Notes: generated by a model not told the origin, from the letters alone. DNA of 64,000 nucleotides from Clostridiales bacterium (GCA_003525075.1 DQFO01000014.1:64032-128031), one strand, 5' to 3'. Positions 20,182-26,126 are shown, counted from the first letter of the stretch. Translations and numbers: made by a program.

Positions 20182-20778
20182 TTATGTTTTAGATATTTCT
20201 TTTCTAATCTGTTTTAGTTTTTTTATTTCATTATCAAAGTCTTCTTTATCCCAAAAACAAAATGTATACATTGAATCATTTTTTTCTCTTGCTAATTCCA
20301 TTTCTTCTATTGTTACATATTTTACATCTGAAACTTCCTCTTTTTGTAATGTATACTCATTTATTTTATAATTAACTTTAAAAATAAAATTATATGAAAA
20401 TCTTTTGGTTTTATCATTACTTTTATGAATATCATATATTTTTATTTGATTTTTTGGAATCTCTATACCTAGTTCTTCTTTTACTTCTCTGAATATAGCA
20501 TTTTCAACACTTTCGCCACTATCTACTTGTCCACCAGTTTTGGCCCATTTGTTAGGATTCTTCTTTTTATTACTAGATCTTTTTTGAAGTAGAATCTCAC
20601 CTTTTTCATTCATTATCCAACATGATACAGTTCTTCTCCAAAGTCCTTTTTCATAAGCTATTTCTCTTTCTTCAATTTGACCAGTAAATTCATTATTCTC
20701 ATTTACAATATCAATTAATTCCATCTTCTCTCCTCTCTCATAATTAATTTTATCATTTATATATTTTTTATGCAACAA
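20182..20778 (-). CDS. NUDIX hydrolase
   Basis: NUDIX box GGQVDSGESVENAIFREVKEELGIEI. Confidence 0.75.
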   Translation of the reverse strand: MLHKKYINDKINYERGEKMELIDIVNENNEFTGQIEEREIAYEKGLWRRTVSCWIMNEKGEILLQKRSSNKKKNPNKWAKTGGQVDSGESVENAIFREVKEELGIEIPKNQIKIYDIHKSNDKTKRFSYNFIFKVNYKINEYTLQKEEVSDVKYVTIEEMELAREKNDSMYTFCFWDKEDFDNEIKKLKQIRKEISKT

Positions 20779-20809
20779 GAAAAAATTGCAAATTTCTCAA
20801 TCTGCAATT

Positions 20810-21151
20810 TTATATATAATAAATAATTATTCCTATCAAAATTAATAGATTTCCTATTAATTTCTTTTTAGTTATTTTTTCTTTTAAAATTCTATTACTT
20901 AAAATCATTACGAAAATATATCCTAATGATTCTATAATTGGCTCATTTTTATATGGAACTCCTTTTAATCCTAAAACTACTAAAACTGTTGATAATACCA
21001 TTAATCCATATCCTATTATTACATATGGATTTAAATATTCTTTTATTATTGAATTGTAAGTTTTAGAAGCACTTTTTTTCAAAATTATTTGTGATACAGA
21101 ACTTACTACAACTGCTAATACTAATAAAATTATATATTTACTCATCTTCAC
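20810..21151 (-). CDS. Small four-transmembrane DMT/SMR-like protein (ArnF/ArnE-like flippase subunit)
   Basis: 113 aa with four predicted transmembrane helices. Overlaps its 122-aa paralog. Confidence 0.5.
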   Translation of the reverse strand: MKMSKYIILLVLAVVVSSVSQIILKKSASKTYNSIIKEYLNPYVIIGYGLMVLSTVLVVLGLKGVPYKNEPIIESLGYIFVMILSNRILKEKITKKKLIGNLLILIGIIIYYI

Positions 21152-21506
21152 TATTTACTATAATTGTACCTGCTATTACAATTATTACTCCTATTACATT
21201 TTTTATTGTTATTGTTTCATTAAATATTAAGATTGCCCATACAATTGACCATAGCAATCCCATTGCTTTATTTGCATATGCAACTGATATATCAAACTTT
21301 TTTATTAATTGTTGCCAAATTATTGCATATACACCTAATATAAGGATTTCTATTCCATAAAATAATATGAACTTAAATGATAAAAATTCTTGTCCTGATG
21401 CAAATTTTGCAAACACTGTTGATAATGTATAAACTGCTATTACTGCTTGTAATATACATATATCTCTAATTTTCGTTTTTTTCTTTACTTCTTTTTCTTT
21501 ATCCAT
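21138..21506 (-). CDS. Small four-transmembrane DMT/SMR-like protein (ArnE/ArnF-like flippase subunit)
   Basis: 122 aa with four transmembrane helices. Paired with 20810-21151. Confidence 0.5.
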   Translation of the reverse strand: MDKEKEVKKKTKIRDICILQAVIAVYTLSTVFAKFASGQEFLSFKFILFYGIEILILGVYAIIWQQLIKKFDISVAYANKAMGLLWSIVWAILIFNETITIKNVIGVIIVIAGTIIVNSEDE

Positions 21507-23799: not shown

Positions 23800-23815
23800 T
23801 TTTACCCTCTTCTTT

Positions 23816-25201
23816 CTATTTATATGTTGGTATTATATATCCAAATAATGCTCTTTGTGCTATTAAGATTATAATTACCATTATTACTATAATTATTATA
23901 TTTCTAATTTTTTCTGACTTTATAAATTTTTCTAAAATAGTTTTTATTCCACTAACTATAAAATATGTAAATGGTATTATTATCCCCATTATATATCTTC
24001 CTTGTGCTTGATAATCACTTGTATATGAATAATATATGCTTAAAATAATAGGAATTATAATTGATGGAATAAATATATAATTTAATAAATATCTATTTTT
24101 TTCTTTTTTATTATAAATAAATAATTCTTTAAAATTGATTAGACATCCTATAATTCCAAGTCCCCATAATATTAAGTAAAATTGATAAATTCTACTAGAC
24201 ATTATTATATTTTGATACCCAAAAATTCCAACAAAGCTTTTTAATGTTGTCTTTATCCAATCATCCTTTATCAACATATCCATTACTGATTCATTATTTT
24301 TTTGTGGTGTTTCTCTTTTTGATGGTTTATATTTATCAATTGCATATTTGTCTCCACATTCCACCTGTGTTTTCATTCCTAATATATCACCATCATAAAT
24401 AATTGCATTTCTTATAAACCACCACCCAGCAACTGCAAATGCCATTAATGCTACTATTAATACTTTTTGAAGTATTTCTTTAATTTTCATCTTATTAGAA
24501 ATTACTGATACTAAACAAAGTATAACACTACATAAGATATATCCATAAGCATTATAATATGTAAGAGAACAAAATCCTATTGAAAGTCCTAATAATATAC
24601 AATGTTTTGTCTTCCAATTACTTTCTAATCCTAAAATCCATAAATATATTATCATTGTTGTTGCCAATACTGCTGTAGAATCATTATTTATATATGATGC
24701 TAAAAATGCCGTTATTGGTTGAAATACTATAATTACTATAAATAAATATTTATATATTCCTTTCAATAATTTTTGAGCTATTTTAACTACAAAATATACA
24801 GATACTGTCATACTTATTGTACTTACAAGTCTTGCAGCAACAACTAATGCAAATTTATCATTTGTGAAAAATGATGCTATTTTAACAAAAACACCACCTA
24901 TCATATATGTAAGAATTGGTTGAAATGCATATGATATTCCCCAATCAGGTTCTCTTATTTCTTCATTACCTCCTTGTGGAATACTGCCATGTTTAGCTAT
25001 ATATTTACATATCTTCCACTTCATTCCTTCATCAGGACACTTATTAAATGGTTGAGAAACTGTCCATATAAGAAAATATGAAAATACAAAAATTAAAAAA
25101 ATTCCTAATATTAATTTTTTATGTTTTTTACATTTTTCGACAAAATTTGTAATATTTATTTTTTTATATTTTTTTATTTCATTTGTCATCTTTTTTCTCA
25201 T
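23816..25201 (-). CDS. Polytopic GT-C-type membrane glycosyltransferase (ArnT/PMT-like)
   Basis: 461 aa with 11-12 transmembrane helices. N-terminal loop with conserved acidic residues (PDEG...EPDWG). Overlaps the upstream GT2 gene. Confidence 0.55.
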   Translation of the reverse strand: MRKKMTNEIKKYKKINITNFVEKCKKHKKLILGIFLIFVFSYFLIWTVSQPFNKCPDEGMKWKICKYIAKHGSIPQGGNEEIREPDWGISYAFQPILTYMIGGVFVKIASFFTNDKFALVVAARLVSTISMTVSVYFVVKIAQKLLKGIYKYLFIVIIVFQPITAFLASYINNDSTAVLATTMIIYLWILGLESNWKTKHCILLGLSIGFCSLTYYNAYGYILCSVILCLVSVISNKMKIKEILQKVLIVALMAFAVAGWWFIRNAIIYDGDILGMKTQVECGDKYAIDKYKPSKRETPQKNNESVMDMLIKDDWIKTTLKSFVGIFGYQNIIMSSRIYQFYLILWGLGIIGCLINFKELFIYNKKEKNRYLLNYIFIPSIIIPIILSIYYSYTSDYQAQGRYIMGIIIPFTYFIVSGIKTILEKFIKSEKIRNIIIIVIMVIIILIAQRALFGYIIPTYK

Positions 25202-26126
25202 CCCCTTTTTCCACTTTTTCTATGATATATGGTGGTCTTTTTCTTGCAGCATCATATGTTCTCCATAAGTATTCTCCTATAATTCCTATTGATAACATAA
25301 TTACTCCAAATCCCATAAGCATAATCATTACAAGCGAAGTATAACCTTCAACATCTATTTTACCAGTTATCTTTTTATATACTATTGCAATTAATAAAAC
25401 TAAAGATAATAATGATGTTAAAAATCCAGTTGTTGTTATTAATTTTACTGGGAAATATGAAAAACTTAGTAATGAATCATATACTAGTTTTATTTTTTTA
25501 GATAATGTCCATCTTGACTTTCCTATTTCTCTTTTCTTTCTTATATATGGAACTGTTGTTGTTTCAAAACCAGCCCATAAAATTTGACTCATTAATGATG
25601 TATTTTTTTCTTGCATATTAACTAATAAATTTATAACTTGTCTATCTATTAAAAATGAATCAAATCCTCCCTTAGGCATATTATGAAGTGCTAATTTTCT
25701 CATTAAAAATGCATATAAATTTGAAAACATTTTTTGAGTTAATGGTTCTTCCCTATCAGCCCTTGTTGCTAATACCACTTTATAACCTTCATCATATTTT
25801 TGTATCATATCTAATATCATTTCAGATGGTTCTTGTAAATCAGCAGCTTTTCTTACTGCACAATCCCCCGTACATTGTGATAGACCTGCTAATATTGCCG
25901 AATGTTCTCCAAAATTTCTTGATAGTCTTATTGTCTTTATATTAGAATCTATTTTTGCTAATTCTTTCATTACACTATATGAATCATCTTTTGACCCATC
26001 ATCTACAAATATTAGCTCATATCCTATATCAAGTTTTGATAATACCTTTTCTTTTAAATCAGCATATAATGGTAGTAAATTATCATGATTATAATATACT
26101 GGTACTACTATTGATATTTTCTTCAT
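25179..26126 (-). CDS. Polyprenyl-phosphate sugar glycosyltransferase, GT2 (GtrB/ArnC/DPM1-like)
   Basis: IVVPVYYN...FVDDGSKD...RLSRNFG, plus two C-terminal transmembrane helices. Confidence 0.8.
   Translation of the reverse strand: MKKISIVVPVYYNHDNLLPLYADLKEKVLSKLDIGYELIFVDDGSKDDSYSVMKELAKIDSNIKTIRLSRNFGEHSAILAGLSQCTGDCAVRKAADLQEPSEMILDMIQKYDEGYKVVLATRADREEPLTQKMFSNLYAFLMRKLALHNMPKGGFDSFLIDRQVINLLVNMQEKNTSLMSQILWAGFETTTVPYIRKKREIGKSRWTLSKKIKLVYDSLLSFSYFPVKLITTTGFLTSLLSLVLLIAIVYKKITGKIDVEGYTSLVMIMLMGFGVIMLSIGIIGEYLWRTYDAARKRPPYIIEKVEKGDEKKDDK

Follow-up and report, generated by a model that had tools for sequence, protein, structure and literature searches.

A conserved six-gene operon of gut Clostridia with a WecE-type aminotransferase and an ATP-grasp ligase, and its predicted role in aminosugar delivery to the cell surface

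In Gram-positive bacteria, multi-component (three-component) transmembrane glycosylation systems such as CsbB/GtcA/YfhO, GtlA/GtcA/GtlB, the lactococcal CsdAB/CflA and the streptococcal GacI/J/K/L employ a membrane-anchored glycosyltransferase (GT) of the GT-A/GT2 type to generate a C55-P-sugar, a small protein as flippase, and a polytopic GT-C enzyme that passes the sugar to a wall polymer; their genes are often clustered (PMC8035078). These systems are the closest described kind to the locus analyzed here, a set of minus-strand genes at 20182-26126 of a 64-kb stretch (64,000 nt) of Clostridiales bacterium DNA (GCA_003525075.1, DQFO01000014.1), which we call the window and in which coordinates are counted from the first letter. 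Six of these genes (20810-26126) form one operon, encoding a GT2, a polytopic GT-C-type candidate, an aminotransferase that by homology is an orthologue of WecE, an ATP-grasp ligase and two small EamA proteins. We slightly favor a reading in which the operon would make 4-amino-4,6-dideoxygalactose (Fuc4N), acylate it, most likely with an amino acid, carry it on undecaprenyl phosphate (Und-P) and move it to a surface polymer.

The operon has the GT2 plus GT-C logic in common with the Gram-positive systems, the GT2 component being recognizable by homology and the GT-C being a candidate. It is unlike them in carrying two flippase candidates of the EamA/drug-metabolite transporter (DMT) type with four transmembrane (TM) helices, rather than a GtrA- or Wzx-type protein, and in adding WecE and ATP-grasp enzymes, the predicted donor being an acylated 4-amino-4,6-dideoxyhexose derived from a deoxythymidine diphosphate (dTDP) sugar. 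The predicted order of steps, with transamination, N-acylation, GT2-dependent transfer to Und-P, a small pair resembling DMT or small multidrug resistance proteins, and a GT-C, is that of the Arn/Pmr pathway; unlike in Arn, the aminotransferase is of the WecE type (hexose, dTDP), and acylation would be ATP-dependent and apparently permanent. Fuc4N is otherwise known from the enterobacterial common antigen (ECA). The ECA Fuc4NAc branch (RmlA/RmlB, WecE, WecD, WecF) resembles the operon in its WecE enzyme and in the N-acylation of the 4-amino group after transamination, but here an ATP-grasp enzyme stands in place of the acetyl-CoA-dependent step, and a monosaccharide would travel on Und-P via GT2 and GT-C, instead of an Und-PP-linked repeat unit. 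The ATP-grasp protein, for its part, shares its fold and its best sequence and structure matches with the L-amino acid ligases BL00235, RizA and BacD/YwfE, whereas its gene partners belong to a glycan pathway and not to a peptide-antibiotic or purine one. In full-text literature searches, neither a module that combines WecE with ATP-grasp nor a Firmicutes system of this kind was found described; most subscription journals were outside their reach, and this is thus no proof of novelty.

Operon structure and conservation across genomes

The original prediction, made from this DNA alone, described seven contiguous minus-strand genes as an aminosugar module. All seven open reading frames (ORFs) are present (Table 1), in DNA with a G+C content of approximately 25%. 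The six genes that run from GT2 to the second EamA protein (EamA-2) are tightly packed, either overlapping or separated by gaps of at most 24 nt. The GT2 gene overlaps the next one by 23 nt, and the stop of EamA-1 and the start of EamA-2 overlap in ATGAGTAA, which corresponds to start/stop coupling. Directly after the operon lies a hairpin resembling a terminator, first spotted by eye, for which RNA folding gave -12.1 kcal/mol (z = -2.75 versus shuffles). A consensus terminator scan found none in this AT-rich region, and missed the hairpin because its stem has fewer than three G-C pairs. A promoter-like site precedes the GT2 gene; since the consensus scan returned fewer promoter-like matches than shuffles did, this site is weak evidence. 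The operon is flanked by housekeeping genes, with mscL (26190-26699) upstream and cwlD, minD, minE and rodA downstream.

The seventh gene, which encodes a NUDIX protein, had been counted as part of the module. It lies beyond the hairpin, has a separate and strong ribosome-binding site for its ATG (20724), and was found only in the six loci (L001-L006) whose ATP-grasp protein is identical to that of the window; it is absent from L007, where the ATP-grasp protein is 96% identical, and from all other related loci compared. In view of its position after the hairpin, its own ribosome-binding site and its narrow conservation, the conserved block comprises six genes and not seven, and a role for the NUDIX protein in the pathway, such as nucleotide-sugar hydrolysis, was rejected in view of the conservation and transcription-unit evidence. 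The protein belongs to an Idi/YfcD-like subgroup, with 71.6 bits against the isopentenyl diphosphate isomerase model and 67.1 bits against YfcD, both below cut-off. Its gene is inserted between the operon and cwlD in the window's species only.

Related loci were collected by scanning one genome per species with an alignment of the ATP-grasp protein. The best 80 of 539 confirmed loci were kept, and the ORFs of 81 non-redundant loci were clustered de novo. The kept loci come almost all from gut or rumen Clostridia, including the cultured genera Laedolimicola, Hominiventricola and Anaerosacchariphilus. The commonest neighbor families in the clustered loci are exactly the operon's own genes: ATP-grasp occurs in 76 of the 81 loci, WecE and EamA-2 in 72 each, EamA-1 in 69, GT2 in 68, and the same GT-C family in 42. 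A large polytopic membrane protein is nevertheless found at the block in 67 of the 76 ATP-grasp loci, those without DUF2142 being members of other families with no Pfam match. Among the same 76 loci, WecE lies immediately upstream of ATP-grasp in 52 and EamA-1 immediately downstream in 57, and the five core families (ATP-grasp, WecE, EamA-1, EamA-2 and GT2) fall within five genes of each other in 54, with 53 distinct pairs of flanking genes. The core module is present in at least 54 species-level genomes, and its recurrence in dozens of genomes with differing flanks indicates a conserved functional module rather than a chance juxtaposition. The seven-gene block suggested for a search in other Clostridia therefore does recur there, in varied surroundings, as a block of six genes with no conserved NUDIX. 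The exact operon proteins are also encoded on many hundreds of metagenome contigs, many of them from the human gut, and in NCBI records titled Clostridiales bacterium or Clostridium sp. CAG:269.

In one metagenome-assembled genome (MAG), the complete module occurs twice, in differing surroundings (L026, CAKPGU010000004.1; L029, CAKPGU010000002.1), with ATP-grasp proteins 76% and 78% identical to that of the window; this reflects either paralogy of the modules or a mixed bin. Three loci are titled Alistipes, Prevotella and Saccharibacteria (L041, L047 and L081, respectively). Gene content around the module is Lachnospiraceae-like in L041 and L047, and these contigs are probably mis-binned rather than signs of a wider taxonomic spread. 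The chromosome of one related MAG measures only 1.55 Mb.

The predicted sugar and its proposed acylation

Profile hidden Markov model (HMM) searches placed the aminotransferase in the DegT family. It had been proposed to be ArnB-like, but it scored 621.8 bits against the WecE model NF008687 (cut-off 375) and 608.5 bits against TIGR02379 (cut-off 434.85), compared with 192.8 bits against the ArnB model NF008658 (cut-off 631). Likewise, in searches of PDB sequences E. coli WecE (4piw) was matched with E = 6e-151, versus 1e-39 for ArnB. The protein aligns with E. coli WecE over its full length (374 columns) with 59% identity, and the lysine that binds pyridoxal phosphate (PLP), K181 in SFHETKNY, is kept. 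On these grounds the enzyme is taken to be a WecE orthologue, that is, a dTDP-4-amino-4,6-dideoxygalactose transaminase, and because it passes the WecE cut-offs and falls far below that of ArnB, its predicted product is dTDP-Fuc4N, and not UDP-linked 4-amino-4-deoxyarabinose (Ara4N). In the first step of the proposed pathway, it would thus convert dTDP-4-keto-6-deoxy-D-glucose, an intermediate formed by RmlA/RmlB on the way to rhamnose, into dTDP-Fuc4N, with RmlA and RmlB supplied from outside the window. As a side observation, the 90% protein cluster that contains this aminotransferase has as its representative a FAD-dependent protein of 533 aa with no relation to it, which could mislead automated annotation; the 533-aa members of the cluster were considered as a possible fusion and rejected as a clustering artefact.

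Genes for dTDP-sugars adjoin the module in some relatives, namely those for RmlA (TIGR01207, 460.8 bits, above cut-off), RmlD and RmlC. In 17 loci, a member of an extended short-chain dehydrogenase/reductase (SDR) family (cluster c6) is encoded between WecE and ATP-grasp, or beside rmlA (e.g. L081, 7004-8005; L052, 8975-9991). Even its strongest matches are weak and are divided among CDP-tyvelose 2-epimerase, GalE and dTDP-glucose 4,6-dehydratase, and inspection by eye did not find the T-D-E motif of the dehydratases.

An ATP-grasp ligase had been predicted in the block, and its presence is borne out by a match of 91.8 bits to ATP-grasp_4. The best PDB sequence matches of the protein are 4dim, the L-amino acid ligase BL00235 (3vot, E = 8e-27) and BacD (E~1e-17), although identity to solved ligases is only 19-24%. 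We also generated an AlphaFold2 model, with a pLDDT of 79.5, for which the top Foldseek matches were 4dim (an uncharacterised Anaerococcus protein), 3vot, RizA and BacD, with query-normalised template-modelling scores of 0.66-0.80. As modelled, the fold is thus closest to the L-amino acid ligases (Lal enzymes). A Pfam scan gave no LAL_C2 match in the window protein; some of its relatives carry this domain. In public records the protein is misnamed as carbamoyl-phosphate synthase or glycinamide ribonucleotide (GAR) synthetase.

A search of 1.84 billion representative proteins yielded 860 ATP-grasp relatives at E<=1e-30, and the best 150 of these were examined for fusions. The fusion proteins, ATP-grasp relatives of 36-63% identity, join this domain to an EamA-1-like C-terminus (P0341), to a c6-like NDP-sugar SDR (P0349), to a PLP fold-II (PALP) domain of the kind seen in amino-acid-forming enzymes (P0316), to hexapeptide (LbH) or GNAT acetyltransferases (P0333, P0433, P0453), and to a Bac_transf phosphoglycosyltransferase (P0405, P0417). 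An independent case of the EamA fusion is found in L040 (10001-11524), where the ATP-grasp gene reads through into EamA-1. Together with the adjoining rml genes, these fusions connect the ATP-grasp clade with pathways of nucleotide sugars and glycans, with an amino acid as substrate and, in a physical sense, with the small membrane proteins. The relatives also include several tandem ATP-grasp proteins, as well as forms of 670-700 aa whose C-terminal half is unassigned.

In the second step, N-acylation of Fuc4N at its 4-amino group is predicted for the ATP-grasp enzyme, which would turn a carboxylate into an acyl-phosphate and ligate it to the amine. An amino acid is the likeliest carboxylate, in view of the enzyme's affinity to L-amino acid ligases. 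The position of WecE immediately upstream in most loci argues for the sugar amine as nucleophile, and the genomic context and the fusions favor an amino sugar as the amine partner over a second amino acid. A reaction of this type is known from PurD, which joins glycine to the amine of phosphoribosylamine. In the Arn and ECA pathways, the N-acylation that follows transamination pulls an unfavorable equilibrium; here, the ligation would pull the transamination forward in the same manner, replacing formylation and deformylation (ArnA/ArnD) or acetylation (WecD). Since an ATP-driven ligation needs no later deacylase, the lack of ArnA, ArnD and WecD would also be explained. Indeed, as had been pointed out for ArnA and ArnD, the ORFs scanned in the 64-kb window include no member of the ArnA (formyltransferase, UDP-glucuronic acid decarboxylase) or ArnD (polysaccharide-deacetylase) families, and HMM scans of the operon and the window detected neither an acetyltransferase, such as WecD, nor a WecF-type GT.

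The identity of the acyl donor is suggested by family resemblance and by the fusions, which lend indirect support to the amino-acylation put forward in the original prediction. With an alpha-amino acid as acyl group, the product would keep a free amine, there being no acetyltransferase in the operon; the N-acetyltransferase fusions of the relatives would fit an aminoacyl group whose free amine gets capped. Regarding the point at which acylation takes place, the SDR fusion suggests the nucleotide sugar, and the EamA fusions the lipid-linked sugar.

Lipid carrier, acceptor and rival explanations

The GT2 matches PF00535 with 79.7 bits and, among PDB sequences, GtrB (5ekp, E = 3e-57 over residues 3-303) and ArnC (E~1e-41); its NCBIfam scores for PgfS (209.6 bits, cut-off 500) and ArnC (176.1 bits, cut-off 529) are both below threshold. 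Full-length homology to GtrB and ArnC and a pair of C-terminal TM helices (227-254 and 259-288) identify it as a polyprenyl-phosphate glycosyltransferase, which in the third step is predicted to load the modified sugar, presumably from a dTDP donor, onto Und-P.

Flipping of the lipid-linked sugar, the fourth step, would fall to the EamA proteins. EamA-1 matches PF00892 with 31.1 bits (gathering threshold 28.2) and EamA-2 with 37.1 bits, and each has approximately four hydrophobic helices by inspection. ArnE is the best NCBIfam name of EamA-1 (32.6 bits) and scores 28.4 bits with EamA-2 (cut-off 92), and the ArnF model yields 21 and 18.9 bits, respectively (cut-off 99). No significant pairwise similarity was detected between the two proteins. 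In a Pfam scan neither small protein matched GtrA_DPMS_TM, and no GtrA/GtcA-family protein was found in the operon; a genuine GtrA (cluster c12, PF04138, 70.9 bits) is a separate gene in some of the related loci. By analogy with ArnE/ArnF, we predict that the pair acts as a heterodimeric flippase.

In the last step, the polytopic GT-C candidate would move the sugar, outside the membrane, onto a wall glycopolymer. This protein matches DUF2142 with 42 bits (gathering threshold 30.1) and PMT_2 with 30.6 bits (gathering threshold 26.1), and has a lysine-rich N-terminus and approximately 12 hydrophobic segments. Just after TM1 it carries a C55-P-D-E58 motif that shows no variation among 14 homologues (identity down to 69%), and the acidic motif of GT-C enzymes sits at the equivalent position (PMC8035078). 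A profile search of PDB sequences gave nothing at E<=1, and there was no NCBIfam match.

The original prediction saw in these genes a mirror of the Ara4N pathway, with a GtrB/ArnC-like GT2, an ArnT/PMT-like GT-C and an overlapping ArnE/ArnF-like pair. Each of these assignments holds at the family level, the GT-C as a candidate, and so does the overall architecture of GT2, small pair, GT-C, aminosugar branch and ATP-grasp; the likeness fails for the sugar, which is predicted to be Fuc4N, and for the Arn equivalogs. Judged by these models, none of which reaches its cut-off, "Arn-like" is an architectural analogy and not a statement of membership. The contrary case that had been named, GtrA-like small proteins in a locus with no aminosugar chemistry, does not correspond to what was found, as the small proteins are of the EamA family and an amino-sugar enzyme is present.

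A candidate acceptor for the operon's sugar is the product of an ABC-transporter glycopolymer cluster at 206-11138, approximately 9 kb from the operon, which continues for about 10 kb beyond the window start, as seen in L087-L089. In addition to Wzm, Wzt and at least five GT2 genes, one of them with a WsaF_C domain (Table 1), it contains an ORF of 510 aa that matches no Pfam family and a gene for an MBL-fold protein. Its part outside the window includes DUF7657/DUF7654, a 228-aa GT2 with DUF2304, a protein of 676 aa with a GtrA fusion and a ChW/peptidase_M14 protein, and the cluster looks like a second lipid-carrier system, of the GtrA type. The WsaF_C domain hints that the organism makes dTDP-sugars. 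The window also carries cwlD and gerA-type genes, which point to the genome of a spore-former-type Clostridia; lipid A is thus not expected as acceptor. In Lachnospiraceae, the module is set among glycopolymer genes encoding an LtaS-like sulfatase-domain protein, GtrA, CotH and further GT2s. DUF2142 proteins themselves are found in lactococcal and streptococcal wall-polysaccharide loci, where the roles proposed for them, as yet unproven by experiment, are those of the WpsI polymerase and a WpsJ-type transferase (PMC12599335, PMC9746298).

A number of observations weigh against the delivery of an aminoacylated Fuc4N by this operon. To our knowledge, no enzyme of the GtrB/ArnC family takes a dTDP-sugar. 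The 64-kb window contains no rmlA or rmlB, and a tblastn search of it for rmlA, rmlB, an SDR and alternative large membrane proteins found none. The GT-C assignment consists of two modest Pfam matches, and the AlphaFold2 model of the protein, with a pLDDT of 52 (14 close homologues), was too poor to use. Two loci of close relatives, L010 and L011 (11153-14166), have GT2, GT-C, WecE and ATP-grasp but no EamA pair, and L039 has rmlD, rmlA, ATP-grasp and the EamA pair, with none of WecE, GT2 and GT-C lying within 10 kb; evidently, the module can also occur in split form. Finally, the ATP-grasp enzyme may use formate or another small acid, in the manner of PurT.

This last point leads to an alternative in which the lipid-carrier system is the same but the ATP-grasp enzyme adds no amino acid. 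It would catalyze N-formylation or N-acylation with a small acid, giving a neutral or anionic product, or act on a different substrate, for instance by amidating a carboxylate of the acceptor, Fuc4N being then transferred with its amine free. ATP-grasp enzymes do ligate other carboxylates, such as in the case of the Campylobacter amidoligase Cj1438, which acts on capsule glucuronate (PMC11800379), and weak matches to PurT, PurK and PurD were obtained with both models and structures; moreover, the operon of the window includes no gene that would supply an amino acid. We nevertheless consider this alternative unlikely. Both by sequence and by fold, the protein is matched best by L-amino acid ligases (BL00235, RizA and BacD), with 72 bits for the BacD model versus 34 for PurT; relatives carry the PLP fold-II fusion, LAL_C2 and the N-acetyltransferase fusions; and WecE lies directly upstream in 52 of the 76 loci. 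Somewhat less probable again is a protein as acceptor, with modified Fuc4N being used for Pgf/PMT-like O-glycosylation of surface or membrane proteins. The best NCBIfam name of the GT2, PgfS, is that of a streptococcal protein glycosylation enzyme, PMT_2 is a family of the protein-mannosyltransferase type, and streptococcal GT2/GT-C systems are described as glycosylating Ser/Thr-rich regions of membrane proteins (PMC12041528). However, the PgfS score is far under its cut-off, PMT_2 also includes ArnT-type transferases that act on lipids or polymers, and the stronger Pfam match of the GT-C candidate is DUF2142, with its ties to wall-polysaccharide loci; the glycopolymer genes around the Lachnospiraceae module and the polysaccharide cluster in the window point in the same direction. 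A true Arn (Ara4N) pathway, or an ordinary teichoic-acid glycosylation locus of the GtcA/CsbB/YfhO kind, is very improbable: the GT2 does resemble ArnC and the small proteins ArnE, but the models for ArnB, ArnC, ArnE and ArnF all score far below cut-off, the aminotransferase passes that of WecE, ArnA and ArnD are missing from the window and GtrA/GtcA from the operon, and the known Gram-positive systems use UDP-glucose, UDP-galactose or UDP-N-acetylglucosamine with no dedicated sugar-modifying enzymes (PMC8035078).

Returning to the proposed delivery of acylated Fuc4N, a more specific version of it is tentative and, in our opinion, rather doubtful as a whole. In this version, abundant gut Clostridia, including cultured Lachnospiraceae, would carry a wall glycopolymer decorated with cationic aminoacyl-Fuc4N (with a free alpha-amino group), made with a GtrB-type GT2 that uses dTDP-sugars, an ArnE/F-like EamA heterodimer and an ATP-grasp enzyme that replaces formyl protection and deprotection; as the ATP-grasp-EamA fusions suggest, the ligase might contact the flippase physically. 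Such a decoration would be functionally analogous to Ara4N on lipid A or to the D-alanylation of teichoic acids. In E. coli O antigens, amino acids joined by amide bonds occur among the non-sugar substituents (PMC7685785). Amide-linked decoration therefore has a precedent, which is lacking for the delivery route and for the host group.

If delivery of acylated Fuc4N by this operon is correct, it would represent an undescribed surface modification pathway in a very common group of human-gut Firmicutes, and would join Fuc4N to an ATP-dependent ligation of the amino-acid type and to an Arn-like delivery by lipid carrier. Such a modification could determine how the surface is charged, what serves as phage receptor, how the immune system recognizes the cell and how well it withstands cationic peptides of the host. 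A first function would be given to a large ATP-grasp clade that is misannotated at present, and the range of Gram-positive transmembrane glycosylation would be widened both in its donors (dTDP-sugars) and in its flippases (EamA pairs). Since cultured carriers exist (Laedolimicola ammoniilytica, Hominiventricola filiformis and Anaerosacchariphilus hominis), the model is directly testable.

Feature positions and other genes of the window

The features of the operon, its surrounding signals and the named genes of the glycopolymer cluster are listed in Table 1.

Table 1. Positions of the operon genes, adjacent signals and glycopolymer-cluster genes in the window
Feature	Position	Strand	Length and remarks
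GT2 polyprenyl-phosphate glycosyltransferase (GtrB/ArnC/PgfS family)	25179..26126	-	315 aa; PF00535
Polytopic GT-C-type candidate (DUF2142/PMT_2)	23816..25201	-	461 aa; ~11-12 TM helices
WecE-type dTDP-4-keto-6-deoxy-D-glucose 4-aminotransferase (predicted)	22669..23799	-	376 aa; NF008687/TIGR02379
ATP-grasp carboxylate-amine ligase, L-amino-acid-ligase type (predicted)	21531..22646	-	371 aa; ATP-grasp_4
Small EamA/DMT protein 1 (EamA-1)	21138..21506	-	122 aa; PF00892
Small EamA/DMT protein 2 (EamA-2)	20810..21151	-	113 aa from GTG, or 111 aa from ATG at 21145; PF00892
NUDIX protein	20182..20778	-	PF00293; ATG at 20724 more likely start (180 aa, choice of gene callers)
Terminator-like hairpin	20776..20811	-	13-bp stem, 4-nt loop, U-run; right after stop codon of last operon gene
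Promoter-like site	26157..26185	-	TTGATT, 17 nt, TAAAAT, with TG; in 63-nt gap between mscL and GT2 gene; GGAGGG ribosome-binding site downstream
Wzm	8777-9571		ABC-transporter glycopolymer cluster
Wzt with Wzt_C carbohydrate-binding domain	6427-7749		ABC-transporter glycopolymer cluster
GT2 with WsaF_C rhamnosyltransferase-type domain	1908-4037		ABC-transporter glycopolymer cluster

Rfam and tRNA scans of the window gave no matches. Just upstream of mscL and the operon, genes for PHP-domain and thymidylate-kinase-family proteins are encoded divergently on the plus strand (26791-28416) and are kept there in the closest relatives only; a link between these neighbors and dTDP-sugar supply is speculative. 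In L010 and L011, the loci that lack the EamA pair, the next genes were assigned by eye to an HExxH membrane protein, a secG-like protein and an RNase R-like protein.

Two of the housekeeping proteins have unusual C-termini. MscL (169 aa) ends in a zinc-ribbon-like extension with weak DZR/Zn_ribbon matches, and MinE (17963-18499, 178 aa) has a long, low-complexity tail rich in lysine, glutamate and asparagine. Elsewhere in the window, five ORFs of 323-765 aa matched nothing in Pfam at the thresholds applied (13476-15773, 29422-30393, 46754-48127, 52560-53693 and 58690-59973). In two of these, one TM segment is present, at the N-terminus, and the ORF that encodes 765 aa is kept between era and dusB in relatives.

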